From Methanothrix sp. (GTDB lineage Archaea > Halobacteriota > Methanosarcinia > Methanotrichales > Methanotrichaceae), in contig JBAXWY010000016.1 of assembly GCA_037128175.1 (NCBI GenBank), positions 1 through 53,417 of the forward strand: a stretch of DNA of 53,417 bases, in the 5' to 3' direction. Of the stretch, positions 6,346 to 53,417 are shown one piece after another; position 1 is the stretch's first letter; the number at the start of each line of letters is the position of its first letter. A program made the position numbers and the translations under genes. The notes under the pieces are model-generated. The model saw nothing but the letters and a program-made list of their open reading frames with translations. It searched no databases and was not told the origin of the DNA.

Positions 6346-7146
6346 ATGTCATCTATTAAACACGTTGCGATATACGGCAAAGGCGGTATAGGCAAGTCGT
6401 GCACTGCCTCGAACATAGCCGCCGCCTGTGCCGAAGAGGGCCACAGGGTATTGGTGGTGGGCTGCGATCCCAAGAGCGACTCGAGCATAACACTGGTTGG
6501 CAAAAGAATTCCCACCATGATGGACCTCATCTTGGCAGGTGGAGAAATTCACGAGGAGGATGTCGTTTTTCCTGGATACAAGGGCGTTTTGTGCATTGAA
6601 GTAGGCGGCCCGGAGCCGGGCGTGGGCTGTGCCGGACGGGGCATAATTGTCGCCATTGATTTCCTGCGGAAAGTCTCCAAGGCCATGGAGAATGTGGACC
6701 TGGTGCTGTACGATGTGCCTGGGGACATCGTTTGCGGCGGATTTTCTGCGCCGATCCGAAAGGGTTTGGTGAGCCAAGCTTACATCATCACCTCTGGGGA
6801 GTACATGCCGCTTTATGCTGCGAACAATATCAGCAAAGGCCTGCGCCGCCTGAATACCCCACTGGCAGGAGTGATTTGCAACTCGCGCGAGGCTGCCGCC
6901 GGGCGGGAGAAGGATATCGCGGAAAGATTCGCTGCTGAGCTGAATAGCCGGCTGGTGGCCTTCATCCCCAAAGACCCCATTGTGCAGCAGTGCGAGAGGA
7001 AAGCGATGACGGTGATCGAAGGCGCGCCGGACTCAGAGATTGCAGAGGTCTACCGGGCCCTGGCCAGGGAGATCATGTCGGAAGCACAGCCGCGGGTGCC
7101 GCAGCCACTGAGCGATGAGAGACTTCGTGAGCTCTCTATGGAGTAA
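6346..7146 (+). CDS. cfbC: Ni-sirohydrochlorin a,c-diamide reductive cyclase ATP-dependent subunit (NifH-like, coenzyme F430 synthesis)
   Basis: [54 protein letters not shown]; directly upstream of cfbB. Confidence 0.88.
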
Positions 7147-7169
7147 AGCGATGATAGGGAGGCGATAAA

Positions 7170-8552
7170 ATGCGAGCCGACTGTCCACGCATCCTGATCG
7201 CTGGCGATCGAAGCTCCAGCGGCAAGACCACCATCGTAGCCGGTCTGCTCTCCGCGCTACGGGGCCGTAGCCTCGCGGTGCAACCCTTCAAGGTGGCCAT
7301 GGACTACATCGATCCCAGCTACCACACCTGGATCACAGGCAGAAGCTGCCGCAATCTGGACGGCTACCTCATGAAGGAGGCTGCCGTCCGGGAGATCTAC
7401 AATCATGCGGCGGAGAGCGCCGACATCGCAGTAATCGAGGGTGTGCGCGGCCTTTACGAGGGATACGATGGAGACCAGGGCAGCACGGCAGAGATTGCCA
7501 AGCTCCTCAAAACTCCGGTCATATTCGTGGTCGATGCCAGAAGCATCACGCGAAGCTGCGCAGCCATCGTTAAAGGCTACATGGACTTTGACCCAGAGGT
7601 GCAATTCAAAGGGGTAATTCTCAACAAGGTGGGGTCGGAAAGGCATGCCCAGAAGGCGATCAAGGAGATAGAGCGCTACGCAGACGTGGAAGTTGTGGGC
7701 GTCATCCGGCGAAATGAGGATATGCACCTGGCCATGCGCCACCTGGGCCTGGTACCCGTTCTGGAGGGCAAGACCCGGCATGAAGGCTTCCCGGAACGAG
7801 TGGATAAAATCCGCCGGATTGTAGAGGAAGGCCTGAACCTGGATCGCATCCTGGAAATCGCAAAGGAGGCACCGCCCCTGCCGGAGGTCGAGCCGGACCT
7901 CTACCGGCAAAATACCTATGGCCAGGGTCTACGTATCGGCGTGGCCAGAGATGAGGCATTCAACTTCTATTACCGGGACAATCTGGAGCTGATGGAGCTG
8001 GCTGGAGCGAAGGTGGTGCCCTTCAGTCCTGTGCACGACACTGCGCTTCCCCAGGTGGACGGCATCTACATCGGGGGAGGCTATCCGGAGCTGTACGCCC
8101 GGGAGCTGTCCGAGAATGCGGGCATGCGCAGCGCGCTGGAAAAGGCGCACGAGAAAGACCTGCCCATCTTCGCGGAGTGCGGCGGGCTGATGTACCTGGG
8201 CCGTGAGATCGAGTGGGACGGCGAACGGCAGGAAATGGTCGGGCTGGTGCCGGGAAAAGCTAGGCGCGGCAGCACGCGCGTGGTAAGCTACGTGCACGGC
8301 GCGATCACGCAGGGCTGCGCGCTCGGGCCCGCGGGGACAACGATCATGGGGCACGAGTTTCACCACTCCGAGATGCTGATGGATGAAAATGTCAAGTACG
8401 CCATCCGCCTGGAGCGGGGCACGGGAATTAAGGATGGCTGGGACGGCATGTGCGATGGGAATCTAGTGGCCAGCTACACCCACATCCACAGCGCATCCTT
8501 CCGGGGATTTCCAGCGGAGTTCATCAGGGCGTGCAAGAGTAGGAAGGGCTAA
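7170..8552 (+). CDS. cfbB: Ni-sirohydrochlorin a,c-diamide synthase (CobB/CbiA family)
   Basis: DRSSSGKTT, FKVAMDYIDPSYH, IEGVRGLYEG, glutaminase motif AECGGLMYL and HEFH; adjacent to cfbC. Confidence 0.85.
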   Translation: MRADCPRILIAGDRSSSGKTTIVAGLLSALRGRSLAVQPFKVAMDYIDPSYHTWITGRSCRNLDGYLMKEAAVREIYNHAAESADIAVIEGVRGLYEGYDGDQGSTAEIAKLLKTPVIFVVDARSITRSCAAIVKGYMDFDPEVQFKGVILNKVGSERHAQKAIKEIERYADVEVVGVIRRNEDMHLAMRHLGLVPVLEGKTRHEGFPERVDKIRRIVEEGLNLDRILEIAKEAPPLPEVEPDLYRQNTYGQGLRIGVARDEAFNFYYRDNLELMELAGAKVVPFSPVHDTALPQVDGIYIGGGYPELYARELSENAGMRSALEKAHEKDLPIFAECGGLMYLGREIEWDGERQEMVGLVPGKARRGSTRVVSYVHGAITQGCALGPAGTTIMGHEFHHSEMLMDENVKYAIRLERGTGIKDGWDGMCDGNLVASYTHIHSASFRGFPAEFIRACKSRKG

Positions 8553-8822
8553 TTTCGAGGTAGTCGGCGGCATTCTCATCGATGTCGGTCTCGCCTATCT
8601 TTTCGGCCTCACGCGAAGGCGCGAAGCCGCGAAGACGAGCTTCATCCAAAGCCAAACGGCAACGATGCGCCCCGCTGCAAGCAAGCGGAACATGGGAGAC
8701 GCCGCAGCATAAAAATGGAACACGTCTGAACTGATTCATCCCTAAGTTGTATACGCTGCCATTTATCCCATCTACTGCGAACTGCGGGTATTACGTTAAA
8801 TAATAAAGAAAAATATATTTAA

Positions 8823-9311
8823 TTATGTTGCTCGTCCTTGTAACCACTTCTTAACGATCCCAGGATTTCTGCACTCAGCTAAATCTATAATTTTATCAAA
8901 TGCGTTCCTTGGAAGTTTCATGGCATATGCATATCTTATTTGGCCCCGAATAAGATCAATGGGCTCTTCATTTCCAGAGGCAGTGTCTTTCAAATCGTCC
9001 CAAAAATCCTTTTTGGTAATGGGCTTTATCGAGAGATATTCCACGTTAGCAACATACGCCCGTCTCTTATCGTCATCCTCCCAGGGAATGTGATCTTCCT
9101 CTCCACTCGTCATAACATAAGCTAATCGATCTATTCCTATTCCGGACCTATAACAAACAATGAATGCTCCCTTTTTTATTTCGTTGACGTTTTTACGGCC
9201 CCAATGAGTTTTGTTGCGATTTTTTACATTAATTTCGCCTGCAACAACATTTTTATCTCGTTCAATACTATGCATACGCGTTTGATTTATCCACCAATAT
9301 TGCTGCACCAT
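8823..9311 (-). CDS. Hypothetical protein, EVE/PUA-like nucleic-acid-binding domain
   Basis: YWWINQ...NVNEIKKGAFIVCY resembles the YWWVNQ...VxxGDxVFxY N-terminal domain of modification-dependent restriction proteins; AT-rich. Confidence 0.5.
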   Translation of the reverse strand: MVQQYWWINQTRMHSIERDKNVVAGEINVKNRNKTHWGRKNVNEIKKGAFIVCYRSGIGIDRLAYVMTSGEEDHIPWEDDDKRRAYVANVEYLSIKPITKKDFWDDLKDTASGNEEPIDLIRGQIRYAYAMKLPRNAFDKIIDLAECRNPGIVKKWLQGRAT

Positions 9312-9929
9312 TTAGAGTATCCTCGCAACTCTCTAAGAAGAGCTTCATAAAGTTAAAGTTGGTGGCAATTCTGGAAATGACGGAAATAAATGGACTATTC
9401 TCTTAGATCCTGTTCTTGCTGAGCTGGCCAAGTGGAGGCAGAATAATGAAAACATGAGATTATAATATTAATATAATTTCATAAATCCCTGTAGTCAATG
9501 AGATCTTAACCAGAGGGTAGGGATTAACACATTTTTATATATCGAAGGTTAGCTGAGGTTTGTCCATATCTCATGTGAGAGCGATGTCGACGATCACATC
9601 ACGGTCAGCCCGCCTTTCGACGAGCAGAACTCAATCGGTATGATGATGCATGAAAGCATGCTCTCCTTTTTCCTCTGAGTACCATATAGATCCGCCATTT
9701 GAGGCCGCGTTCAATGGTGTTGGTTTTCATGCAGTTTGGTCCGCCTATCCAAAACCCAAAACGACCCTCAATCGAGTATCCGTTATGCACTCGTTTTGTA
9801 GCCGCCCATCCTTGCCCTGAGGCCCGGCCCAGCACGACATGTGCTTGGACACCTTCGGAACGCCTGTGGCCTTCTTCATCGCCAGACGGACTTGAACTCC
9901 ACGTTCGTGGTTTATCCTCTCCTTCGCAC

Positions 9930-10196
9930 CCTTCACAGCTTCGTGCTAAATCCTGGTTCACGCGAAGGCGCGAAGTCCCTGTGGTTATTAACGATCCTCT
10001 TTGCACTCTCTTTGAAGGTAACCGCACAGAAGTTGATCAGTAGACCAACAGGCAGGTGAAGCAGACGCAGGTATGTCAGCAACTATTTGGGGTGAACCGG
10101 GGCAACATAGACCGACTCCAGCAGCCCAGGCCCCAGGTCACGATGCAAATGAAATGCGGCATCAACCACAATAGCAGAGACTTCTTCAACATTCAT
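9930..10196 (-). pseudogene. GxxExxY pseudogene (internal deletion plus nonsense codon)
   Basis: MNVEEVSAIVVDAAFHLHRDLGPGLLESVY joined directly to VAPVHPK*LLTYLRLL...; about 53 codons, including the D..ExK motif, missing relative to 10271..10714. Confidence 0.9.
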
Positions 10197-10270
10197 TGAA
10201 CCTCAGCTTTTCTTCGCGCCTTCGCGGCTTCGCGTGAGACCGTTAACCCCAGGGATCTCACAACAGTCTT

Positions 10271-10714
10271 TCATTCTCCTTCTCCGCAGCTTTGCACGAG
10301 ATTCTTATTCACTCGAAGGCGCGAAGATGCGAAGTCCCGATGGTTGTTAACTACCCTCTTCGCTCCCTCCTTGAAAGTAGCCGCACCGAAGTTGATCAGT
10401 AGACCAATCGGCAGGTTAAGCAGGCGCAGGTAAGTCAGCAATTGTTTAGGGTGAACTGGGGCAAGGGTTTCAACGGACTTCAACTCTACAACCAGGCAGC
10501 CTTCCACCAACAAATCGACGCGAAGCCCCTCATCAAAATGCATGCCATCAAAGTCAAACGCCACAGACTTCTGGCGCTCCACCCGCAAGCCACGTCTTTC
10601 CAGCATGCGTGCAAGGACTGCCTCATAGACCGACTCCAGCAGCCCAGGCCCCAGGTCACGATGCAGATGAAATGCTGCATCTACCACAATAGCAGAGACT
10701 TCTTCCACGTCCAT
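10271..10714 (-). CDS. GxxExxY family protein (PD-(D/E)XK nuclease-like)
   Basis: LGPGLLESVYE, RVDLLVE, VELKSV, QLLTYL, GLLINFG; RBS GAGG upstream. Confidence 0.92.
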   Translation of the reverse strand: MDVEEVSAIVVDAAFHLHRDLGPGLLESVYEAVLARMLERRGLRVERQKSVAFDFDGMHFDEGLRVDLLVEGCLVVELKSVETLAPVHPKQLLTYLRLLNLPIGLLINFGAATFKEGAKRVVNNHRDFASSRLRVNKNLVQSCGEGE

Positions 10715-10789
10715 AAAACCTCAGCTTCACTTCGCGCCTTCGCGACTTCGCGTGAGACCGTCTGGCGTTCTGCTTCTCACCTGATCTTC

Positions 10790-10881
10790 GCCAGCCTCTC
10801 GTTCACCACATCCACAGCGCGTCCTTCCGGGGATTTCCTGCCAACTTCCTGCGGGCCTGCAAAAATAGGTCGTGCATTTAA
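10790..10881 (+). pseudogene. Orphan duplicate of the cfbB 3' end
   Basis: 10806-10838 matches 8480-8512 at 32/33 nt; translates HIHSASFRGFPANFLRACKNRSCI* vs cfbB HIHSASFRGFPAEFIRACKSRKG*. Confidence 0.9.
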
Positions 10882-10902
10882 CTTAAATTACAGGATTATC
10901 GA

Positions 10903-11952
10903 TCACTCCTTTTCGTACCAGAGCTTCAGCCCCGCTTCCCCCCAGTCGAAGACAGGAACGCTTCTTCGCGGATAGCCCGACTCCCGCAGGGCCTGCACCA
11001 CGAGCGGCACGGTGATGGTGGCATCAGAGAAGACCTGCACTTTGCTCGCCTCCTTCTTGACCTTGCCCCAGGAGACAGCCTCCTCGAAGGTGCAGCCGGA
11101 CAGGCCTCCCCAGTGCGGAGCGTCGGTGGTGTACTGAATGGCATAGCTGTGGCCTCCCGAGTAATCGCCTATCAATTCCGCAATGACTTCCGTCTGCTGA
11201 ATGAAGTTCTTGGGAACGCCTCCGCCGATGTAAATCACTCCTGTCTGGGCGGACTTTTCCACCATCTGGGTGATCTCGTCCACATCCTTGATGCCATCGA
11301 CCATGACGCTGTGTCCTTCGCGCAGAGCCATAACCATGCCAATTCCCCAGGAGCTGTCTCCGAAGGCAGGCACGAAGATGGGCACTCCTGCTTTATGAGC
11401 CGCGCCAAGGATTGTTGTATCAGGCAGGTCTTTTCCCACCATGTACATCAGCTCGCGTGATGAGTAGCGCCGGGCCGGGTCCAGGCTCTTCACAAAGTCA
11501 GATATGTGATTGTCGGCTTTATGCAGCTCAATCTCCGATACGAATACGTCGTAGATTCTGTCGATCTTGCATTCATTGAGATAAGCATCATCGGCGCAGG
11601 CGCTGCCCTGGTAGTGAACGATGCCCAGTCCCTCGCACAGGTCGTGAAATAGGTTGGCGCCCGTGCTGACCAGGCAGTCTACCTTTCTCTCCCGCAAAAG
11701 GTAGGCAATGAACTCGCCCAGGCCCGCGGGCACCATGGCCCCGGCGAGACCAAGGAAGATGGTAACATCCTCGTCGTGCATGCGCTTCCAGACCTTCAGA
11801 GATGCACCAAGCTGGCCTCCCTGGAAGCCCATCTTACTCATATCCTCTACCAGATCGGCAACACCCCTATCTTTCATGGGTATTGTCGTCCTTATCTTCT
11901 CGCTACTACAAATAAAATCATGACCGTGACCGTGATCCATTTTATCCCTCAA
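10903..11952 (-). CDS. Deoxyhypusine synthase family protein
   Basis: GLAGAMVPAG, VSTGANLFHD, IGGGVPKNF, GGLSGCTFEEAVSWGK with the catalytic Lys. Confidence 0.9.
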   Translation of the reverse strand: MRDKMDHGHGHDFICSSEKIRTTIPMKDRGVADLVEDMSKMGFQGGQLGASLKVWKRMHDEDVTIFLGLAGAMVPAGLGEFIAYLLRERKVDCLVSTGANLFHDLCEGLGIVHYQGSACADDAYLNECKIDRIYDVFVSEIELHKADNHISDFVKSLDPARRYSSRELMYMVGKDLPDTTILGAAHKAGVPIFVPAFGDSSWGIGMVMALREGHSVMVDGIKDVDEITQMVEKSAQTGVIYIGGGVPKNFIQQTEVIAELIGDYSGGHSYAIQYTTDAPHWGGLSGCTFEEAVSWGKVKKEASKVQVFSDATITVPLVVQALRESGYPRRSVPVFDWGEAGLKLWYEKE

Positions 11953-12025
11953 GATTTCTTCATATCAGTATCGGTATGGATGCATTTAAAGATTGTCGAT
12001 CTGGGTGACTGATCTGTACATGCAT

Positions 12026-12040
12026 GAAGCTTTATATACC
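12026..12040 (+). promoter_or_regulatory. Candidate archaeal BRE/TATA box in the DHS/speA divergent intergenic region
   Basis: gaagcTTTATATAcc about 110 bp upstream of the speA start. Confidence 0.4.
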
Positions 12041-12144
12041 AAAAAGGGCACTTTAGAAAAGTTCGATGCGATTTGGAGCGTGTGGGATAATAGCGATGAG
12101 GGCATGCGGCCTAGGGGCAGGTTTCATGGGGAAGGCGAAGTGAC

Positions 12145-14091
12145 ATGTGGAAAGCTGAAGATTCAATAGATCTCTACGGGATAGAAAATTGGGGCAATGG
12201 CTATTTTTCAGTTAATGATAAAGGTAATATTATTATATTTCCCAACAAAGACCGGGCGAGGTTCGTGGATGTTATGGACCTCATCAAGGAGATCGAAAAA
12301 TCCAGCGACCTGGAGTTTCCCGTGCTCCTCCGCTTTCCTCAGATCCTGGAAGATCGGATCAATGAGATCACAGGCGCATTTTTAGGCTCTATCGCAGAAT
12401 TCTCCTACAAAGGCACCTATCAGCCCATCTTCCCCATGAAGGTCAATCAGAGAAAAGAGGTAATCGAGTACATCATCAAATACGGAGCCCGGCACGGGAT
12501 CGGCCTGGAGGTGGGAACGAAAGCGGAGCTACTGGCAGCGCTATCCCTGGGCCTGCCCAAAGAGGCGCTCCTCATCTGCAACGGCTACAAGGACGAAGAC
12601 TATCTGCGCCTGGCTCTGAGCATCCATAATGTAAATAATATAGTAATAGTTGTCGACCTCTTCGAGGAGATTTTTGATATTCTGAAGTATGCCGAGCAGA
12701 TGGGCGTCACTCCCCGGGTGGGCATGAGAGTCAAGCTCTTTGCCCGCGGCTCCGGTCGCTGGGTGGAATCGGGTGGCGAGTCGGCCAAGTTCGGCCTGTC
12801 CACCAGCGAGGCCTTAGAGCTTATGAAGATACTGCGGGAAAAGGGTATCATAGACAGCCTGAAGATGATTCACTTTCACATCGGCTCGCAGATCACAGAT
12901 ATCAGGACCATCAAAAACGCCATGAACGAGGCGGCTCGTATCTACGCCAAGGTACGCAAGATGGCCAATATCGAGTACCTGAACGTGGGTGGCGGCCTTT
13001 CCGTGGATTACAACGGCTCCAACACGGCCACTCCCTCCAGCGCCAACTACACTCTGCGCGAGTATGCCAATGACGTGGTCTACACCGTGCAAAAGATCTG
13101 CGATGACGAAGATGTCCCCTGCCCCACCATCGTCTCGGAGAGCGGGCGGGCCATCGCTGCCTACCACAGCCTGCTCATCTTCAAGATCATCGGTCGAAAG
13201 AATGTCAAGGACTCGCTCCTGCGCACTCCCAAAGAGGAGGATCCCATTCAGATCGACGATCTGTGCAGCGCTTTTAAGGAGATCAACATCGACAACTACA
13301 AGGAGCACTATCACGACGCCTTGCAGTATCGGGACGAGCTTTATGACTCCTTCAACCTGGGCAATATCGGCCTTGAGGAGCGAGCCAAAGGCGAGACTCT
13401 CTTCGGAATGGTCTGCAAGAAGGCGGCATTCCTGGCCAAGCAGGCCGAGGACGAATCGGATGAGTTTCAGGAGCTGAAGAAGCTGGTCAGCCAGAAGTAC
13501 ATCGGCAACTTCTCTCTCTTTCAGTCCGTGCCGGATATGTGGGGTGTGGAACAGATCTTTCCCACCATCCCCCTGCATCGCTTGAACGAAATGCCCTGCG
13601 AGAGGGGGAGGATTGTAGATATCACCTGTGACTCGGACGGGGAGATCAAGCGCTATGCCGGGGACAGCGAGGGCCTGGAGTACCTGGATATGCACACCCT
13701 CCGGGAGAACGAGGACTACTACCTGGGCATCTTCTTGCTTGGTGCCTACCAGGACACCCTGGGCGACTTTCACAACCTTCTGGGATGCGCTCACGAGGTG
13801 CACGTCATGGCTGACAGCGACGACTGGTACATCTGCCAGAAGGTGGAGGGCGACACCTGCCTGAAGCTCCTGGACTTCTTCAACTACGAGACCAAGGACT
13901 ACATCTGGGAGATCATGGACCGCTGCGTGGACAAGCATTTATGCATCCCTAAGAAAGAGCTGGAGCGGATTGAATCACAGCTCAACCGGACGCTGAAGGG
14001 CTATACCTACTTCATCACCAAGCCCAACGGAGCGAAGGGGAAAGAGACTGAGAAGGAGAGGAGTTTGAGCGACAGCATGCTCAAGAGCTAG
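12145..14091 (+). CDS. speA: Biosynthetic arginine decarboxylase (PLP-dependent, bacterial SpeA type)
   Basis: WGNGYFSVN, LRFPQIL, PMKVNQ (PLP Lys), HFHIGSQI, SESGRA, DITCDSDG, GAYQDTLGDFHNL; 648 aa. Confidence 0.92.
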   Translation: MWKAEDSIDLYGIENWGNGYFSVNDKGNIIIFPNKDRARFVDVMDLIKEIEKSSDLEFPVLLRFPQILEDRINEITGAFLGSIAEFSYKGTYQPIFPMKVNQRKEVIEYIIKYGARHGIGLEVGTKAELLAALSLGLPKEALLICNGYKDEDYLRLALSIHNVNNIVIVVDLFEEIFDILKYAEQMGVTPRVGMRVKLFARGSGRWVESGGESAKFGLSTSEALELMKILREKGIIDSLKMIHFHIGSQITDIRTIKNAMNEAARIYAKVRKMANIEYLNVGGGLSVDYNGSNTATPSSANYTLREYANDVVYTVQKICDDEDVPCPTIVSESGRAIAAYHSLLIFKIIGRKNVKDSLLRTPKEEDPIQIDDLCSAFKEINIDNYKEHYHDALQYRDELYDSFNLGNIGLEERAKGETLFGMVCKKAAFLAKQAEDESDEFQELKKLVSQKYIGNFSLFQSVPDMWGVEQIFPTIPLHRLNEMPCERGRIVDITCDSDGEIKRYAGDSEGLEYLDMHTLRENEDYYLGIFLLGAYQDTLGDFHNLLGCAHEVHVMADSDDWYICQKVEGDTCLKLLDFFNYETKDYIWEIMDRCVDKHLCIPKKELERIESQLNRTLKGYTYFITKPNGAKGKETEKERSLSDSMLKS

Positions 14092-14169
14092 GCTTTGGCA
14101 GAGATTAGATCGGCATAAGGGTTTTTCGCACAATAGTTTTAACTTCCCGGACCGCGCCAGAAGTGCTCG

Positions 14170-16104
14170 ATGCTTACAGCCGAAGAGAAGAAAATGGCGC
14201 AAAAGATCCTGGCGCTGCCGGGGTTTATCGCAGGCATGGTTGCCGTTGCTATCGGCTGCATCTTTCTCCTCTTCGCATTGCCCTCATTGGGCCGGCCGGG
14301 AGAGCTGGACTATGCCTTCTCCCAAGCGGCGGGTGCCTTTCTCATCATTCTGCTGGGGCTTTGCGGCATTTTGGCCGCCGCCCTGGCCTGGCCCAGCCGC
14401 AAAGCGGAGCATGCGCTGCTCTTTTTAGGCGGCCTGTTCTCCCTCTCCATCTTTACGGCTTTGGCGCTTTTCCGGGAGTGGACGGCCTGTGCTATTATTA
14501 TAATGATAGTAGCTGTTACCGGGATGGCTGTGCGCCGCCCGAGAGATGCGGCCCGCAATCTTCTCCTCTTTGCCGGTCTATTCGGCTTTCCCCTCACCCA
14601 GGCGGCCATAACTTTGCTTCCCTACGGCTGGAAGACCTGGTCGATATCCGGGCCTCTCTTTCTCTTCAGCGGCCTGGCTCTCTCCTTTTCGGGAGATTTC
14701 AGTCGCTTGCCTCTGCTCTCCGGCAAGGTCGGACGGAAGTGGGGCTACTTTGTCTATGCTCTGGGGAGTCTGGCATTAATTGTCCTGGTCATAGGCGCTC
14801 TTGCTTACCTTCCCAATCAGGCCGGCCCCGGACAGGTCAGCACAGCTGCCAAATTTGAGCCGAGTTTAAACGGCACGCCAGGACAGGCAGAGCTGAAGGA
14901 CTGCGGTTGTAACGGCAGATCTTCGCAAAATCAGCAAGATTCGACTTCTTTGAATAGGAGCCGCGAGGACGAGAATCCAGATGACAGGCAGGATGATAAT
15001 CTCAGGGCAAAAATTCTTTCTCCCGGGGATGTGCGCACCTTTCCGCGCGGGGAGGCTGTGCTCTTTTCGGCTGCGCCATGCGGCCAAAAGCCTTTGCGCT
15101 ACCTGTGGCGGTCAAGCCTGGATGGCATCATCGGCAGGAACGAATCTTTCCAGATGAAGAACCTCAGCCTGGGATGGCATAATATCACCCTTACGATCAC
15201 CAACGCCAGCGGCGTTGCCTCTACCTTCGTGGAAATCGGTATCGCAAAACCCTGGATTTGCGGCAAAGTCAATCCCAGGCCGAAATACTATCCACTGGAC
15301 ACCCCCTGTCAAGACATCTGGCCTGATGCACCGGAGCAGTGCCAGCAGATGGAGGTCTGCCATCCCGACCTGGACTGGATTGTGGAAGAGACCATCAATG
15401 CCTGCAAAAACTCGACAGGGGACCGAAAAAAGTGCCGGGGCCTGTACATCATCAACTCCTTTGGACCAGAGGCCCGCTATATGCAGGGCTATGCACTTTT
15501 CAAGGCCTGCTGCTCCGGCTATCCGGAGTGCACTCGCATGTGCAGTTCGAGCCTGGCCGGGACCTGCTCCTTTAAGGAAGGCTTCAACAGAAACGTCGCC
15601 AACCTCTCCTGCCGGCCCGGGGAGTGGGGTGTCTCCGCCTGGCACTCAGACACGAACATGAGCGAGAACAGTGCCGTGATGGGCATGTTTCCCACCCACG
15701 CCACAGTCAACATTCTACAGACGGGCGTATGCATCGATTATGCGGCGGCGCTGACCACAATGCTACGAAAGGCCGGCTATAATAGCAGCGAGGTCTTCAG
15801 CACCGGAAGCACGGGCTATGATCTGCCCCTAGTGGGAAATCATCCCGGCCATGCCTACAATCTGGTGCTTCTGCCCGGCGACACAAAGTACCACATCGTG
15901 GACACCACGGGCAATGGCGACGGCATAAATTTGGGGGGCGTGCCGGGATACTTCCGCTTCACTGGCTGCTTTTTGGGAAAGCCGGCAGATATCCGGGTAA
16001 TGGACTGGTGGGTGGGCTACTGCAATATGATCTCGCCCCAGAGCTACAATGATGCCGGCGATGCGACCACTCCAAAAAAAGAGAAAATTTACGGATGCAC
16101 TTGA
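14170..16104 (+). CDS. Membrane-anchored protein with PKD-like and transglutaminase-like (Cys-His-Asp) domains
   Basis: N-terminal TM helices; YLWRSSLDG...LSLGWHNITLTITN PKD-like segment; GVCIDYAAAL / GHAYN / IVD triad; Cys-rich linker. Confidence 0.7.
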   Translation: MLTAEEKKMAQKILALPGFIAGMVAVAIGCIFLLFALPSLGRPGELDYAFSQAAGAFLIILLGLCGILAAALAWPSRKAEHALLFLGGLFSLSIFTALALFREWTACAIIIMIVAVTGMAVRRPRDAARNLLLFAGLFGFPLTQAAITLLPYGWKTWSISGPLFLFSGLALSFSGDFSRLPLLSGKVGRKWGYFVYALGSLALIVLVIGALAYLPNQAGPGQVSTAAKFEPSLNGTPGQAELKDCGCNGRSSQNQQDSTSLNRSREDENPDDRQDDNLRAKILSPGDVRTFPRGEAVLFSAAPCGQKPLRYLWRSSLDGIIGRNESFQMKNLSLGWHNITLTITNASGVASTFVEIGIAKPWICGKVNPRPKYYPLDTPCQDIWPDAPEQCQQMEVCHPDLDWIVEETINACKNSTGDRKKCRGLYIINSFGPEARYMQGYALFKACCSGYPECTRMCSSSLAGTCSFKEGFNRNVANLSCRPGEWGVSAWHSDTNMSENSAVMGMFPTHATVNILQTGVCIDYAAALTTMLRKAGYNSSEVFSTGSTGYDLPLVGNHPGHAYNLVLLPGDTKYHIVDTTGNGDGINLGGVPGYFRFTGCFLGKPADIRVMDWWVGYCNMISPQSYNDAGDATTPKKEKIYGCT

Positions 16105-48291: not shown

Positions 48292-48417
48292 CTAGCTTTG
48301 ACTTGATAGTAATTTGTTTTCATGTTTTTCTATCTCAAATTTGGCATATGCAACGTCATACATTTTCTATCGCCATTTTATTGCCCGGATTCTAAATGCG
48401 GGAAAAGAATATAAAAC

Positions 48418-48597
48418 TACTTGCTCGCGGCCTCCACAATCCCGATCTCCTCCTCCGCCAGCCCATAAAACCGGGCCCCGCATCGATCTGCCCGTCCGTG
48501 GCCTCGATCTGGCCGCTGTCGGGCGGTTTTTTCGTGAGGCTTGCCAGCTTTCGGGAAGCCGTTTATGCAAGGCGAGCAACCGAGTTTGGAAAACCAA
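48418..48597 (-). repeat. Array repeat R1: degenerate Type IIG RM C-terminus fragment
   Basis: Across frameshifts encodes LLALHKRLPE..PHEKT..QIEATDGQID..YGLAEEEIGIVE. Confidence 0.88.
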
Positions 48598-48620
48598 TGA
48601 ATGCTGATATGATTTCCGGT

Positions 48621-49187
48621 TTATAATAGTCTCAAGTAGTCCATTATCTCATTTGTTGTGTAAACTTTGACTACACTCTGCTTTTTCATATGCGTGTCAT
48701 TGCTCCAAATTGGACAATTCAAGGACATGGCTAGCGCCACAAAGAAGGAATCATCAATATCAATATCTTGCATAATCTCTTTGGCTTTAGCCTTGAATGT
48801 CTCTTTGTGTCCAAAAGAAGTGAAACGGCGGCGGCGCACCCGCGCAGCAAGCTGCGGGGCATCCAAGGCGCCGCCGCATGAAGGTGGAACCAGGTTAAGC
48901 TGATCCAAACCTAAGCTGAATAAGCATGCCCTTTATCCCCGATGCAAGCATCGGGGTATTGCTTTAAAAATAAAATCGATTCTGCTGAAAACAATCTCAC
49001 TCAAATAATTCAGAGATTGCTCGTCTAATTTTGACTTGCGTAAAATTTCGCTTTTGTGTGTCTCTATCTCAATTTTGGCATAGTCAGCCGAGTACATCTT
49101 GAAGGGCGATAAGAAAATGATCTTTCGAGTAAGGCCATTTTTGAGAAGCGAAGCGATGAGTACATTTGTATCTAATACTATCTCCAT
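48621..49187 (-). pseudogene. PIN-domain toxin interrupted by a 150-bp insertion
   Basis: MEIVLDTNVLIAS...SRIDFI + SFGHKETF...DIDDSFFVALA...WSND; removing 48820-48969 restores a 138-aa frame. Confidence 0.88.
48820..48969 (-). mobile_element. Non-autonomous IS200/IS605-type mini-element (palindrome-associated)
   Basis: Inserted 3' of TTAT and ends in TCAC (boundary can slide by up to 2 nt); subterminal hairpins ccccgatgc-aa-gcatcgggg and cgcagc-aa-gctgcg. Confidence 0.8.
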
Positions 49188-49420
49188 CCCAGCTTCTCCA
49201 TTATGTCTCTCTTCATCCTATGATCAAGATCATTAACATCTTCTTCTGTAAGTTCGCTGTCCTTGAGAAGATCGTCAAATAGCATTAAAATAAATAGATC
49301 GTTTTTTATATCTTCTTTTATCTGATTCTCTAACCTTTTGCGTACCAGCAGATCGAGATCTTTATTCGACCTAATTCTTATCTCAATCTCTTGGGGAAGC
49401 TCGACTTCTATCGTCATCAT
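49178..49420 (-). CDS. Putative antitoxin
   Basis: 80 aa, MTIEVELPQEIE start, acidic, overlaps the PIN start. Confidence 0.7.
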   Translation of the reverse strand: MMTIEVELPQEIEIRIRSNKDLDLLVRKRLENQIKEDIKNDLFILMLFDDLLKDSELTEEDVNDLDHRMKRDIMEKLGWR

Positions 49421-49507
49421 TTATCGATAAATAGAAGACATGGTTGAGATATAAATCTAACCGTAATTAATTTTTTTCTACGCCCATGGACTTAATTCTC
49501 TCCATCA

Positions 49508-49783
49508 TTAATTTGTGGGCGGAAGGAATCTGATATCAAGTTTCCTCCATAGCTCGATCAAAGAGGCGATCATCTCCATTTTATGAGGATCGCTTCCCTC
49601 TTTTTCGCGAGTCAGACTTTTAAAAACAGTCTCCGCAAGTACTGAGAATGGGACACAAAGCTCTAGCGCGGGGTGATTATCGATGTGATCCAGAAGGCTG
49701 GAGGCTAGACGCACATTTCTTTCTCTTTTATCCTGACCGACAGAAAAGAAGAAAATGTCAGAATCAACTGCTACATGTTTCAT
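49508..49783 (-). pseudogene. 3'-truncated PIN-domain toxin
   Basis: VAVDSD...VPFSVLAE; stops at 91 aa, whereas the paralog at 52915 continues to the C-terminal D..TTD motifs. Confidence 0.75.
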
Positions 49784-49938
49784 TTCTTATGGAATGCTTT
49801 CTTGATTCGTTCCCTGGTTGCAAGAGCTTCCTCTTTGGTTACTGCCCAAACTATATTGCCGTTGATATCCACGGCGCCGCCATAGGGAAGCTGGTTTTTC
49901 TCCGAATCGTATCTTTGGCCAACTACTTCTTCAGTCAT
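49780..49938 (-). CDS. Putative antitoxin, 52 aa
   Basis: MTEEVVGQRYDSEK...; ATGA overlap with the PIN gene. Confidence 0.6.
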   Translation of the reverse strand: MTEEVVGQRYDSEKNQLPYGGAVDINGNIVWAVTKEEALATRERIKKAFHKK

Positions 49939-49996
49939 TCTTTTCCTTGGTCCAGGTTTTGATTCATGAAAAGAAATAGTTTTTCGTCGGATTCCT

Positions 49997-50215
49997 TTAT
50001 CCGCTCGCCGCTTCCACAATCCCGATCTCCTCCTTCGTCAGCCCATAAAGCCGTGCCCCCGTCGATCTGCCCGTTCGTGGCTTCGATCTGGCCGCTTGCA
50101 GAGCAGTCTTTTCGTGGGGCGTGCCAGGCTTTCGGGGAGCTGTTTATGTAAGGAGAGCGTCTAGCACCACCAGGGAGACCAGGCGAACGTGACGGGCGAC
50201 GTCTTCGGAATGATC
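49997..50215 (-). repeat. Array repeat R2: degenerate Type IIG RM C-terminus fragment
   Basis: EDVARHVRLVSLV..LHKQLPE..PHEKTALQ..QIEATNGQID..LYGLTKEEIGIVE. Confidence 0.9.
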
Positions 50216-50235
50216 CAATAAATAAAAATTATTTT

Positions 50236-50595
50236 TTAATATAAGATATAACTCTCTCTGCCCTGATCAAAAGCATCCTGAGACATTGAAGACAAACCAC
50301 TGATTGAATCGTCATAATCTGCTCTATTACGATGATTTCGCAGACGTCTTAATTCCAAGGCCAGTTTCCTTCCATTGCTTCTCTTGCCTAAGCTGTAGAG
50401 CTGGCTAATGACATAACTGTTGACGCTTTCATCAGGGATGGGCTTGTGCTCCACATCTCTTAGATGGTTTCTAGCGATACAAAAGGCCGCATAGTATGCC
50501 CTGCTAATTGATGAGCGAAGCCTTGCTTCATCTTTCTCACCTGGTGATGCCAGACTTTTTGCCAGGCTCAAGTAGCGACACCAGTCGAAGCCTAT
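50236..50595 (-). pseudogene. HEPN-domain toxin, probably inactivated
   Basis: FDWCRYL..RSSISRAYYAAF..LRNHRNRADY; the expected ATGA start overlap reads ATAG; apparent +1 frameshift near the C-terminus. Confidence 0.72.
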
Positions 50596-50963
50596 TCGTA
50601 CTCCACCTGAATGAGCAGCTTTGAGTCTGATGCATCGGAGGCATTGAGCCACCAATTATCGTCTAGTTGATCCAGTTTATCAATGGCATCTAGCGGCAAT
50701 AGGTCGGTGCAGATGTAGATCACCAACTGTTTTTCGCCAATCTCGTCCGGATCAGTCACGACTTCTAAAAATAGAATCTCTGAAGGGAAATAATTTCGTA
50801 TTCGATGGTAGGCCTCCATCAGCAAAGGCAAAAGATGCGGATTACTGCCAACAAAGTCGTACACATCTTTCACAGTCTTTAGTGTGTATTTGTTATTGAG
50901 GAGTACCATGTCATGATTTAGCTTGGTATCTCCTCGATCTACGACATCCACCTCAGTGATCAT
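50592..50963 (-). CDS. HEPN-associated partner protein (putative antitoxin)
   Basis: LLPLLMEAY..YFP..LEVVTDPDE..LDDNWWL; coupled to the HEPN gene. Confidence 0.65.
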   Translation of the reverse strand: MITEVDVVDRGDTKLNHDMVLLNNKYTLKTVKDVYDFVGSNPHLLPLLMEAYHRIRNYFPSEILFLEVVTDPDEIGEKQLVIYICTDLLPLDAIDKLDQLDDNWWLNASDASDSKLLIQVEYE

Positions 50964-51039
50964 CTGAATTTCCCAACGCCTGGCTTGGAATAAATAGATT
51001 TCATCGGCTAGGAAATCAACTGCATTACCTGGCTTCCCG

Positions 51040-51177
51040 CTTCCACAATCCCGATCTCCTCCTCCGTCAGCCCATAAAGCCGGCCCCCCGTCGATCTGCC
51101 CGTCCGTGGCCTCGATCTGGCCGCTTGCAGGGCAGTCTTTTCGTGAGGCGTGTCGGTTTCGGGGAGCTGTTTATGCA
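51040..51177 (-). repeat. Array repeat R3: degenerate Type IIG RM C-terminus fragment
   Basis: HKQLPETDTPHEKTALQ..QIEATDGQID..LYGLTEEEIGIVE. Confidence 0.9.
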
Positions 51178-51252
51178 TAAGGATTATCCTTTGACGATCG
51201 CAAGGTTAAAATTGAATCAGCCCATTAGTGGAACAAGGGGGAATAGTGTAAC

Positions 51253-51513
51253 GTGCCGTTTACTAAAGTTGATGAAAAAGGCAGAATGGTTCTACCTAAT
51301 GAGATCAGGCGCAAGATGAAAATCGCTCCGGGTGATGAATTTGTTGTGGACGAGGTCGGGCCGGACACAATTATAATTAGAAAAGTGGATGTGCGAGCTA
51401 TGATTCAGGATGCGATTGAACGTGCCAAGTCCGTAGACCTCGACAAGCTCCAAAAAGAGATGAACGAAGAGGGAAACAGAGTTGCCAGAAAGATATACAA
51501 GGTTCTTGATTGA
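51253..51513 (+). CDS. AbrB/MazE/SpoVT-type antitoxin
   Basis: TKVDEKGRMVLPNEIRRKMKIAPGDEF. Confidence 0.88.
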   Translation: MPFTKVDEKGRMVLPNEIRRKMKIAPGDEFVVDEVGPDTIIIRKVDVRAMIQDAIERAKSVDLDKLQKEMNEEGNRVARKIYKVLD

Positions 51514-51895
51514 CTCCAATCTTTTTATAGCAGCGGTAAAGAGCGGTTGGACGAAGAGTTCGGAGCTTCTCTCTGTTCTCCTGGATGGCTCTTTCGAACT
51601 GGTTGCCAACAAATCTTTGCTTGCGGAGTATGAGAAATATGCTCAGCAACTTGATGCGCAATATATCTTCTTTTACATGAAGAGCCGGATTATTTTGATT
51701 GATCTGTCCGAAGACGAGGTACAAAGATGCAAGCCATTCTTTCCTGAAAGTCAGGCATCTGATGTGGTTCATGCTGCAACTTGTCTTCATACCGCAGCAG
51801 TCCTGATCACAAATGATAAACATTTTGATAAAATAAGAGATGCCGATCTCATAAGAGTTTGGTGCATCTCCGAGGCCATTAAAAATCTGCTCTGA
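51482..51895 (+). CDS. PIN-domain (VapC-like) toxin
   Basis: LIDSNLFI..LLAEY..SDVVHAATC..LITNDKHF. Confidence 0.88.
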   Translation: MPERYTRFLIDSNLFIAAVKSGWTKSSELLSVLLDGSFELVANKSLLAEYEKYAQQLDAQYIFFYMKSRIILIDLSEDEVQRCKPFFPESQASDVVHAATCLHTAAVLITNDKHFDKIRDADLIRVWCISEAIKNLL

Positions 51896-51917
51896 ATACC
51901 TCAAACAGGATTATCGT

Positions 51918-52140
51918 TCAACCATTTTGCATTGCAGCATCTTCCACAATCCCAATCTTCTCTTCCGTCAATGCGTAAAGCTCGTAGACCAGCGCATCGA
52001 TCAGGCCGCTTGCCAGGGCGGTCTTTTCGTGAGGCGTGCTGACTTTCGGGGAGCTGTTTATGCAAGGCGAGCATTTGCTCCACCTGGGAGACCATGCGAA
52101 CGTTGTCGGCGACGTCGGCGGGATCGGAGAAATCGATGGT
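51918..52140 (-). repeat. Array repeat R4: least-degenerate Type IIG RM C-terminus fragment
   Basis: TIDFSDPADVADNVRMVSQVEQMLALHKQLPE/TPHEKTAL..IDALVYELYALTEEKIGIVE. Confidence 0.92.
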
Positions 52141-52166
52141 TAGAGCCGAAGAAATTTCAGTTCGCT

Positions 52167-52439
52167 TTACATATTATTATAAGCATGATCATGATGATCG
52201 AAGTTTTGAAACTCTATCCTTTTTTCGTTTGCGAAGACTTGATAGATGATAACCCAATGCTTGGCTACATGCGTGCTCTGTTTCCCCGCTAAGTTTCCAC
52301 TTAAATTTTCGCCTATTTCGGGGTTTGCAGCAATTTCCTCGACCCTTTTAAGAACTCTCTCCCTCAAAGGTGTATTCTTTTTTGTCAAGCGTTTAAAATT
52401 TCTTTGAAACTGTGGGGCAAAATCAAGATGAAAGATCAT
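52167..52439 (-). CDS. RelE/ParE/YafQ-family toxin
   Basis: FAPQFQRNFKRL..NPEIGENLSGNLAG..HWVIIY..HHDHAY; 90 aa. Confidence 0.85.
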   Translation of the reverse strand: MIFHLDFAPQFQRNFKRLTKKNTPLRERVLKRVEEIAANPEIGENLSGNLAGKQSTHVAKHWVIIYQVFANEKRIEFQNFDHHDHAYNNM

Positions 52440-52600
52440 AGATCGCGTAGATAGGCGATTGCGTCCTCCACTTTATCAAATCGCTTCGCCAGACCCATTT
52501 TGCATTCCCTGGCGCCTTTTAAAGTTCCGGCAACAATGCGCTCATCTTCTTCAAGAGGCACCGTTTTCTTTGCTGGCACCTTGGATATTTTCGCTTTCAT
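52436..52600 (-). CDS. Putative antitoxin of the RelE toxin, 54 aa (absent from the ORF track)
   Basis: MKAKISKVPAKKTVPLEEDERIVAGTLKGARECKMGLAKRFDKVEDAIAYLRDL*; ATGA overlap with the toxin start. Confidence 0.75.
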   Translation of the reverse strand: MKAKISKVPAKKTVPLEEDERIVAGTLKGARECKMGLAKRFDKVEDAIAYLRDL

Positions 52601-52659
52601 CTCTGATCGCCTGATTTAAACATGGATTTAATGCTTTTAAAAACTTTCGCCAAAGGCTT

Positions 52660-52867
52660 CTAGCTTCTCGCCGCCTCCACAATCCGGATCTCCACCTCCG
52701 TCAGCCCATAAAGCCGGGCCCCCGTCGATCTGCCTGTCCGTGGCCTCGATCTGGCCGCTTGCAGGGTAGTCTTTTCGTGAGGCGCGCCTGGCTTTTGGGG
52801 AGCTGTTTATGCAAGGCGAGCGTCTAGCACCACCCAGGGAGACCATGCGAACGTGGCGGGCGGCCTC
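52660..52867 (-). repeat. Array repeat R5: degenerate Type IIG RM C-terminus fragment
   Basis: AARHVRMVSL..LALHKQLP..PHEKTTLQ..QIEATDRQID..LYGLTEVEIRIVE. Confidence 0.9.
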
Positions 52868-52914
52868 TTGTGGATTGCAGAATTAATAATTGATCTGAAG
52901 CTTCATCAGTTTTA

Positions 52915-53361
52915 TCACAAACCTATCGTTTTCCGAGCATCTTTCAGCGAGACAATTTTGAGCTGAAAGCCTTCTGGAACCTGATAGTGCCGAAGAATTT
53001 TGTCGGTCGTAATAAGAAAGTCCATACCGTAAGCTAACGAGTATCCAAGATGGGTTCGATCCGTAGGCTGCATTCGATCTTGGCATTCTTCAACAAGATT
53101 CCAGCAAATTTCGGCGGCTTCATCGCTCGGCAGAAGAAAACGGATCTCCAGTTTTCTCCACAGCTCTATCAAAGCCGAGATCTGCTCCAGTTTCTGCGGA
53201 TCTTTGCTTTCCTTCTCGATGGTTATGGTTTTGAAGACGGTTTCAGCCAGAACGGAGAACGGAACGCAAAGTTCAAGATCTGGATGATTATCGATGTGCT
53301 CCAGAAGGCTGGAGGCTAGACGCACATTTCTTTCTCTTTTATCCTGGCCGACAGAAAAGAA
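52915..53361 (-). pseudogene. PIN-domain toxin lacking its N-terminal ~11 codons (paralog of 49508..49783)
   Basis: Near-identical DNA to 49690-49750 ends abruptly at ~53361; retains PTDRTHL..LITTD. Confidence 0.7.
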
Positions 53362-53417
53362 GGGCTCTTCGCTATTTCCAGTTGCTAACCTCAGGTTACT
53401 ATGTTTTTCCAGTTGTT

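Follow-up and report, generated by a model that had tools for sequence, protein, structure and literature searches.

The window analysed here, a contig of 53,417 nucleotides from Methanothrix sp. (contig C16 of a 2.96-Mb, 98-contig metagenome assembly; genome G000), contains the 3' end of the cofactor F430 gene cfbB twice, once in the gene itself and once as an orphan fragment 2.3 kb downstream, beside the gene for deoxyhypusine synthase (DHS). By comparison with related sequences the orphan is the displaced native end of cfbB. It is probably the scar of a recombination in which the cfbB locus of a related Methanothrix lineage entered a chromosome carrying cfbB next to DHS and displaced the original, ANF-type 3' end. 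The comparison set consisted of 59 Methanothrix-genus genomes, labelled G000 onward, and the neighbourhood 3' of cfbB was obtained for 52 relatives.

Duplication of the cfbB 3' end

The cfbB gene (7170–8552, plus strand) encodes an intact Ni-sirohydrochlorin a,c-diamide synthase of 460 amino acids that ends in HIHSASFRGFPAEFIRACKSRKG. The protein scored 650.9 bits with NF033195 (F430_CfbB; cut-off 560), and the gene immediately upstream is cfbC (6346–7146; 406.5 bits, cut-off 402), which together identify the protein as CfbB. The last part of the gene is repeated: a 64-nt segment at 8480–8543 (plus strand), which stops 9 nt before the cfbB stop codon, recurs in direct orientation at 10806–10869 with 83% identity. 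The first 33 nt of the left copy form a conserved core coding for HIHSASFRGFP. One of the 11 mismatches falls within these 33 nt and 10 fall within the last 31, and the chance expectation of a 32/33 direct match in the window is approximately 2e-9. The first-pass annotation of this DNA, made from the letters alone, had noticed the double cfbB end with its 32/33-nt core, and both copies were confirmed at these positions. Its description of the divergence beyond the core as mostly synonymous or conservative did not hold, as there are differences at 5 of the 12 aligned tail residues and one residue more in the orphan.

The orphan (10806–10881, plus strand) comprises 24 codons and a stop, reads HIHSASFRGFPANFLRACKNRSCI and has no start codon; no open reading frame (ORF) of at least 30 amino acids in the ORF list ends there. 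The native convergent neighbour follows on the minus strand, DHS (10903–11952; NF002006, 483.9 bits against a cut-off of 434), with 21 nt between the stop codon of the orphan and that of DHS.

The 33-nt core was conserved in all 17 relatives checked, with 0–6 mismatches of 32. Beyond the core the cfbB tails vary across the genus between an AEF-like and an ANF-like type. The body of the cfbB gene in the window is similar to that of G012, and its last ~40 nt form an AEF-type tail. Identity to G012 ranged from 89 to 100% per 100-nt window and was 90% in the last of these, where G013 was closer at 93%. The orphan is of the ANF type.

The empty site in relatives

The site was found empty in three of the 52 relatives, G012, G043 and G042. 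The cfbB genes of these genomes end in ..PANFLRACKNRSC or its RM variant, that is ..KNRSCM or ..KNRSRM (also written ..PANFLRACKNRSCM or ..SRM), with DHS 28 nt downstream, and it is because of this arrangement that the orphan is assigned as the native cfbB end. The first-pass annotation had predicted an empty site ending in a ..KNRSCI-like allele, a prediction that the three genomes bear out. G012 is the closest relative, with a cfbB protein 97% identical to that of the window. Positions 6605–8543 and 10806–14052 of the window are collinear with G012, and the overlap of the two segments there is exactly the 64-nt repeat. Positions 10806–10950 were 96.6% identical to the cfbB end and downstream sequence of G012, and a similar query gave 97.3% over 226 nt.

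A tree was obtained from 15 cfbB bodies taken from the first 18 members of the genus, excluding the truncated or frameshifted copies of G003, G007, G009 and G017. It placed G000 as sister to G012 and G013 as sister to that pair, with 100/99 support at both forks. The DHS-adjacent tail ..ACKNRSCM of the sister species agrees fully with the ..ACKNR type as far as GCCTGCAAAAATAG, beyond which the two diverge (G012, G043 and G042 compared with G059, G015 and G010; loci L031, L044, L048, L047, L004 and L006). The rearrangement that placed DHS beside cfbB seems to have broken the older locus 2 nt before the old stop codon, lengthening the ORF by three codons.

The probable imported segment and its right joint

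The cfbB stop codon of the window is followed by 56 nt (8553–8608, plus strand) homologous to G006, G013 and G065, which correspond to the native downstream spacer of AEF-type cfbB genes. Positions 8400–8612 align to these genomes at 87, 82 and 79% identity respectively. In G006 the spacer is immediately followed by the stop codon of a PRiA4_ORF3 gene in convergent orientation, the family being assigned from this copy (PF07929, E 2.9e-69). Of the 52 relatives, 14 have a full convergent PRiA4_ORF3 gene on the downstream side of cfbB, either adjacent or beyond acylphosphatase-like or other small genes. Compared with G006, the window has extra DNA (8609–10775), located exactly where the spacer meets the PRiA4_ORF3 stop codon. 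A 37-nt remnant of that gene, consisting of the stop and the last 11 codons (DVVNERLAKIR), is present at 10777–10813 on the minus strand and aligns with the 3' ends of the full cfbB-side PRiA4_ORF3 genes of G059, G052, G001, G010 and others. No PRiA4_ORF3 gene above cut-off was found anywhere in G000.

The remnant and the orphan share the 8 nt CCACATCC (10806–10813), a microhomology common to the PRiA4_ORF3 3' end and cfbB that marks an illegitimate joint. The 8-mer was found in both partners, PRiA4_ORF3 alleles reading ..TTCACCACATCCGCGTCG and cfbB reading ..TACACCCACATCCACAGCGC; PRiA4_ORF3 alleles with ..TCACCACATCCGCGTCG were found in G001 and G010. Since the core is conserved, the spacer is native elsewhere and the remnant belongs to the neighbour gene of cfbB, the DNA from a point within cfbB to position 10813 is, as judged by these homologies, a copy of the stretch that runs from cfbB to PRiA4_ORF3 in another Methanothrix lineage. 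The earlier suggestion that the incoming DNA brought its own cfbB end agrees with this assignment, the AEF tail being accompanied by the native spacer of other lineages.

Proposed recombination at cfbB

The locus shows the anatomy of a displacement scar: an altered 3' end with the version of the relatives stranded downstream, incoming DNA homologous to the same locus elsewhere, a right joint at a microhomology and a left junction within cfbB homology. The donor piece would have run from inside cfbB to 10813 and would have contained the AEF-type cfbB tail, the native 56-nt spacer, accessory DNA gathered between cfbB and PRiA4_ORF3 (two GxxExxY units flanked by arrays, and an EVE-like gene) and the last 11 codons of PRiA4_ORF3. 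On the left, a homologous crossover would have taken place in or upstream of the HIHSASFRGFP-coding core, and on the right an illegitimate joint at CCACATCC would have connected the PRiA4_ORF3 3' end to the recipient cfbB. A single step of homology-facilitated illegitimate recombination could have produced this structure. The same product could have arisen in two steps, first an intermediate similar to G013 and G016, in which PRiA4_ORF3 was whole and the orphan longer, and then a deletion mediated by microhomology. The cfbB gene would have stayed intact because the donor, too, supplied an allele of cfbB and because only products that kept cfbB and DHS would survive, and the GxxExxY genes and CGCGAAG arrays would be passengers of the donor spacer. 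We observed how the locus is built, what it is homologous to, the empty sites and the second breakpoint; which way the DNA moved, in how many steps and by what recombination pathway is what we infer from them.

Several points weigh against this reading. No near-identical donor was found, and because the best matches to the imported tail and spacer reach only 79–87% identity the donor is either unsampled or the event is old. The left crossover could not be placed, there being too few informative sites upstream of the core. The polarity may be the reverse, as the three species with an empty site could have lost the insert through recombination between the direct repeats. G013, the sister of G000 and G012, also has an AEF tail and an orphan, and both displacements replace an ANF tail by an AEF tail, which may be chance or may hint at a directional process. 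The data also show no route by which DNA would enter a Methanothrix cell.

The same locus in G065, G013 and G016

The gene order in G065 is cfbB, spacer, array, GxxExxY (88% amino acid identity), array and full PRiA4_ORF3, and the locus contains no orphan; positions 10309–10816 of the window are 82.5% identical to it. In G013 the same spacer position is occupied by a gene with a NYN domain and a UPF0175 gene. The spacer between cfbB and PRiA4_ORF3 is a variable spot that collects small accessory genes, among them GxxExxY, the EVE-like gene and the NYN and UPF0175 pair.

Additional cfbB ends were sought in the 59 genomes and then, with greater sensitivity, in the fetched loci. A second high-identity cfbB-end fragment was found in G000 and G016, and the more sensitive search added G013. 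In G016 and G013 the order is cfbB with an AEF tail, spacer, whole PRiA4_ORF3, ~75 nt of the region upstream of PRiA4_ORF3, and orphan, and the junction ..gcaaaaATCATGGGGCACGAG is common to both. Their orphan starts ~235 nt before the cfbB end, compared with ~73 nt in G000. The orphan of G016 and the acylphosphatase-like gene downstream of it resemble the true cfbB end and neighbour of G010 and G059. GxxExxY was absent from both G013 and G016. As the orphan of these two genomes differs in breakpoint and lacks a GxxExxY gene, the breakpoint is not fixed and the displacement is independent of GxxExxY.

The two additional orphans lie just upstream of the whole PRiA4_ORF3, at 859–1041 of L041 (G016:C31) and 1–280 of L032 (G013:C271). 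The G016 orphan has an internal deletion between GGGGCACG repeats, and the G013 orphan is interrupted, at the end of the contig, by a CGCGAAG element. An apparent second cfbB end in G052, obtained with tblastn, proved to be a contig break inside the real gene and was rejected. No downstream orphan was detected at E 1e-3 in G006 and G001, which have AEF-type tails.

These loci allow a variant history, nested within the recombination proposed above, which is possible though distinctly less likely than not. The displacement could be an old one, common to G013 and G016 and already present in the ancestor of G013, G000 and G012. That ancestor would have had cfbB with an AEF tail, the spacer, a whole PRiA4_ORF3 and a long orphan. 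A later deletion in G000 would have removed the ~0.85 kb lying between the CACCACATCC of PRiA4_ORF3 and the CACCCACATCC of the orphan, and G012, G043 and G042 would have lost the whole insert by direct-repeat recombination, regenerating a cfbB with an ANF tail. The position of G013 as sister to the other two in the grouping (G013,(G000,G012)) of the tree, its AEF tail and orphan beyond PRiA4_ORF3, and the junction it has in common with G016 are consistent with this history, and the microhomology at the G000 joint would suit a deletion equally well. However, the PRiA4_ORF3 remnant and spacer of G000 have their nearer counterparts in G059, G052 and G006, those of G013 and G016 being more distant. 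The orphan of G016 is followed by the acylphosphatase-like gene and not by DHS, and in G016, G001 and G015 DHS occurs with no orphan beside it. Under this history the insert must also have been lost on three separate occasions, or once in an ancestor common to G012, G043 and G042 but not to G000. What lies beyond the orphan in G013 is not visible, as the contig breaks off within it.

Other origins of the duplicated end

Integrative elements that target tRNA genes regenerate the end of the target gene, and the duplicated cfbB end could be the remnant of a site-specific element of this kind, in which an integrase since lost joined an attP carrying a mimic of the cfbB end and the 33-nt core served as att core. 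The direct repeat bounds 2.3 kb of partly AT-rich accessory DNA, and an intact target gene on the left with a displaced end on the right gives the classic picture of attL and attR. Such an origin is nevertheless quite unlikely. In accordance with the first-pass annotation, no PF00589 integrase was found on the 53-kb contig, all 6 matches in the genome being on other contigs. Searches of the island ORFs with Pfam, NCBIfam and PADLOC gave no recombinase domain, and GxxExxY apart there is no candidate recombinase among them. The island had no blastn match in collections of plasmids and phages. Throughout the genus cfbB has the conserved core, with an insert or with none, both arms are homologous to the chromosomes of relatives, the right arm being a truncated neighbour gene, and the breakpoint in G013 and G016 differs from that in G000. 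Insertion of a casposon type or integrase type was rejected, as neither Cas1 nor an integrase is present and the breakpoints are not fixed.

The first-pass annotation regarded the DNA between the two cfbB ends as an inserted island and the nuclease-like GxxExxY protein as a candidate for homing-like mobility. In such a model GxxExxY, a PD-(D/E)XK nuclease, would cut the cfbB end and cause a discrete mobile island to be copied in with a resistant cfbB-end allele. GxxExxY is patchily distributed, with 21 matches in 14 of the 59 genomes of the genus, the D...ExK motif is intact, and the gene appears to travel together with the arrays that flank it; in G065 there are only two CGCGAAG x3 arrays, and both flank its GxxExxY gene. 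A survey of GxxExxY loci for duplicated gene ends had been proposed with the homing idea, and direct repeats of at least 30 nt do flank 13 of 15 loci. Many of these repeats include period-8 arrays, a gene end was not demonstrated for any of them, and the one locus studied in detail, L099, is a messy array of glycosyltransferase paralogues. In the window GxxExxY is located in an intergenic spacer, and apart from this locus and that of G065 the other 13 loci examined in the genus are not at cfbB. Homing is disfavoured because G065 has the cassette beside cfbB with no duplicated end, G013 and G016 have the scar with no cassette, and the right joint lies in PRiA4_ORF3 and not at a cut site in cfbB. 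Taken together these observations make homing very unlikely. A literature search on GxxExxY found no paper treating mobility.

The junctions of the duplication were crossed by contigs of four public sequencing runs, of which one (X8) belongs to another study; X1 and X3 possibly represent the source sample, and X7 and X8 were not flagged as such. Record 1 of X1 spans 7800–10135 and record 7 spans 10636–11600, both with 0 differences to the window. Record 23 of X7 spans 10753–10940 with 0 differences and record 31 of X8 spans 10637–10973 with 3 differences. A 76.5-kb metagenome record, perhaps from the same sample, is 100% identical to the window over 10167–14261. A scan of metagenomes for the pattern of ANF tail and DHS spacer returned a single, window-identical record and gave no intermediate or empty-site form elsewhere. 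The joint 8543/10806 expected of an empty-site variant was not found among the contigs of the other runs, X7 and X8 covering the region only partly. The contig joints listed instead sit in CGCGAAG arrays and carry foreign letters, and therefore derive from other array loci. The duplication junctions are not an assembly artefact. A chimera of two co-occurring strains, conceivable for a metagenome assembly in 98 contigs given that related Methanothrix strains co-occur in the same runs, is hardly credible, as the 8 nt common to the two sides of the right joint would not suffice for an assembler to connect them, the X7 and X8 contigs bridge this joint, and the 76.5-kb record agrees over 10167–14261, though possibly from the same sample.

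Genes carried between the two cfbB ends

An AT-rich segment (8740–9600; 38% GC compared with 51% for the genome) holds a gene on the minus strand (8823–9311) for a stand-alone protein of 162 amino acids. No Pfam family was matched at E up to 1, and no match was obtained with NCBIfam or PADLOC, so that the protein was not recognised as an EVE protein at sequence level. The AF2 model (pLDDT 92.5) is predicted by Foldseek comparison to have a PUA-like fold of the EVE/YTH/ASCH type. The best match was the EVE-HNH enzyme VcaM4I (6yex; E 6e-10, TMq 0.74), and further matches were 2eve, 1zce, THYN1 and YTH domains. The term EVE-like, already used in the first-pass annotation, is thus appropriate for the modelled fold. 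The 15 homologues are all unnamed or hypothetical proteins, one of them from a Methanothrix metagenome-assembled genome; several are 250–259 amino acids long and cover only about half of the query.

The pseudogene and intact gene of GxxExxY that had been reported between the two cfbB ends were both verified. The pseudogene unit (9958–10242, minus strand) includes the flanking arrays at 9958–9983 and 10205–10242, and the pseudogene itself (~9990–10196, minus strand) is interrupted by one TAG stop. Two matching blocks abut in the pseudogene (9961–10105 and 10106–10243) and are 159 nt apart in the intact copy (10320–10464 and 10624–10761), which indicates that this 159-nt stretch is missing from the pseudogene. 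The intact gene (10271–10714, minus strand) belongs to the GxxExxY / PDDEXK_3 family, with 129.8 bits for TIGR04256 against a cut-off of 35 and an E of 2.7e-37 for PF13366. Its translation contains the GLLESVY and D...ELK motifs, and its 3' end reads into an array at 10309–10342. PADLOC gave nothing for the EVE-like ORF, a 140-amino acid ORF or PRiA4_ORF3, and only a marginal Cas4 match for GxxExxY (E 0.0096).

At one other GxxExxY locus, L099 (G012:C1:260699-264049), GxxExxY and two small ORFs that by eye resemble HicB and HicA lie between duplicated gene parts. The flanks consist of two 356-nt copies, 90% identical, of what appears by eye to be the 5' part of a GT2-like glycosyltransferase gene, with a third, divergent paralogue between them.

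Period-8 arrays and their association with GxxExxY

Five heptamer arrays with a period of 8 nt are present in this part of the window, at 8604–8641, 9958–9983, 10205–10242, 10309–10342 and 10723–10760. The leftmost, a CGCGAAG array found by repeat search, has three units; it is 87% complementary to the inverted array at 10205–10242 and 84% complementary to the inverted array at 10723–10760, on the right. The bracketing inverted CGCGAAG repeats of the first-pass annotation are accordingly present, with 84–87% complementarity to 8604–8641. The repeats are not specific to the island, because 214 dispersed period-8 arrays of the CRCRRAG+N type occur in G000, some of them bracketing housekeeping genes. 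Of these loci 51 are CGCGAAG arrays. Ordinary genes, among them SepRS and a MoaA-like radical-SAM gene, likewise lie between facing pairs of arrays.

The array heptamers are CGCGAAG, CACAGAG, CACAAAG and CGCAGAG, often arranged as palindromic pairs around a loop of ~25 nt. Counts of heptamer X-N-X in G000 were 73 for CGCGAAG, 55 for CACAGAG and 52 for CACAAAG, compared with 5 or fewer for unrelated heptamers. About 20 CGCGAAG copies extend into a conserved tail of ~35 nt (..TCAAAACATTGGTTTATTTCGGCCTCGCTGTACTAG). CGCGAAG x3 arrays were found in 23 of the 59 genomes of the genus, with 18–32 copies in eight of them, and a control with the reversed pattern gave none. The pattern CACAAAGNCACAAAGNNCACAAAG was too strict, returning 0–6 matches per genome across the genus. 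An automatic search beside every array showed that most CGCGAAG arrays have no adjacent small ORF. A scan of the whole window with Rfam at gathering thresholds returned no family, and the arrays are for this reason not regarded as a described RNA. Literature searches, restricted to GxxExxY and to REP or MITE repeats in Methanothrix and Methanosaeta, found no description of such arrays.

The association between the arrays and GxxExxY was surveyed at 15 loci (among L080–L100), partial and stop-containing copies being dropped. All 15 had at least two heptamers of one family within 250 nt, which amounts to only ~3–4 independent contrasts, as kin share labels. The heptamer family appears to track the clade of the GxxExxY protein: CGCGAAG is found with the proteins of G000 and G065, CACAGAG/CGCAGAG with a six-member GxxExxY clade and with G054, and CACAAAG with the remaining proteins. 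G012 holds two GxxExxY clades, each with its own heptamer family. Seven of the eight CGCGAAG-rich genomes have no CGCGAAG-flanked GxxExxY.

In REP/REPIN-RAYT systems palindromic repeats are dispersed between genes and the RAYT gene is flanked by inverted copies of its own repeat family. The arrays described here are similar in being short, palindromic, intergenic repeats of many copies that flank a small gene, with an apparent pairing between gene clade and repeat family. They differ in that the flanked gene encodes a PD-(D/E)XK GxxExxY protein (PF13366) and not a Y1 transposase of the IS200/IS605 type, in that seven of the eight array-rich genomes have no flanked copy, and in that mobility of the arrays is only conjectural. 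It is a speculative and rather improbable proposal that the GxxExxY protein is the cognate partner of the CRCRRAG-N arrays, in a nuclease-based analogue of RAYT and REPIN. If GxxExxY binds or cuts the arrays it could spread or act on them, and it would then help to make array-rich spacers such as that between cfbB and PRiA4_ORF3 into recombination hot spots, an indirect tie to the scar. The association is a lead only; the ~200 period-8 arrays per genome that appear to track GxxExxY clades are the part that may merit separate study.

Relation to known displacement systems

The structure at cfbB is best regarded as an example of a known phenomenon, the scar of gene-end displacement by recombination; the host and the gene are unusual. 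[quoted passage not shown] The likeness to the Rhs, CdiA and T6SS displacement outlined there extends to a conserved 5' body joined to a new 3' end with the old end stranded downstream without a start codon, to a switch at the edge of a conserved coding motif, to incoming DNA that is the homologous locus of a relative, and to a model with one homologous and one illegitimate junction (PMC5361080). The present case differs in that an archaeal housekeeping cofactor gene takes the place of a polymorphic toxin gene, that an immunity gene is lacking, that the new tail brings no obvious benefit, and that the orphan is single and does not form an array, with an EVE-like gene and GxxExxY cassettes as passengers. 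In its flanking direct repeats and in a target kept intact by the incoming sequence it is also similar to integrase insertion into gene 3' ends (attL/attR), from which it differs in having no integrase, a repeat that is ordinary conserved coding sequence, variable breakpoints and ends that are the chromosome of relatives.

If correctly interpreted, the locus provides a natural case, resolved to the base, of one allele's gene end being displaced by that of another lineage in a methanogenic archaeon, with an essential F430 gene kept intact through one homologous and one microhomology junction. It would also indicate exchange of chromosomal segments between Methanothrix species. Annotators who meet duplicated gene ends on either side of accessory DNA should check the neighbours in relatives before inferring att sites or homing from the duplication.

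Other repeats in the window

Two further sets of repeats were observed in the window. At 1–266 a 62-nt segment is repeated at a spacing of 204 nt with 97% identity, in the 5' flank of the region of a 984-amino acid ORF, and this probably reflects a surface protein with repeat domains. At 48417–53362 there are 3–5 repeated segments of 50–234 nt, 60–92% identical and spaced by 0.7–1.9 kb; the copies resemble repeated gene ends on the minus strand and are probably what the first-pass annotation had called the RM-repeat array.

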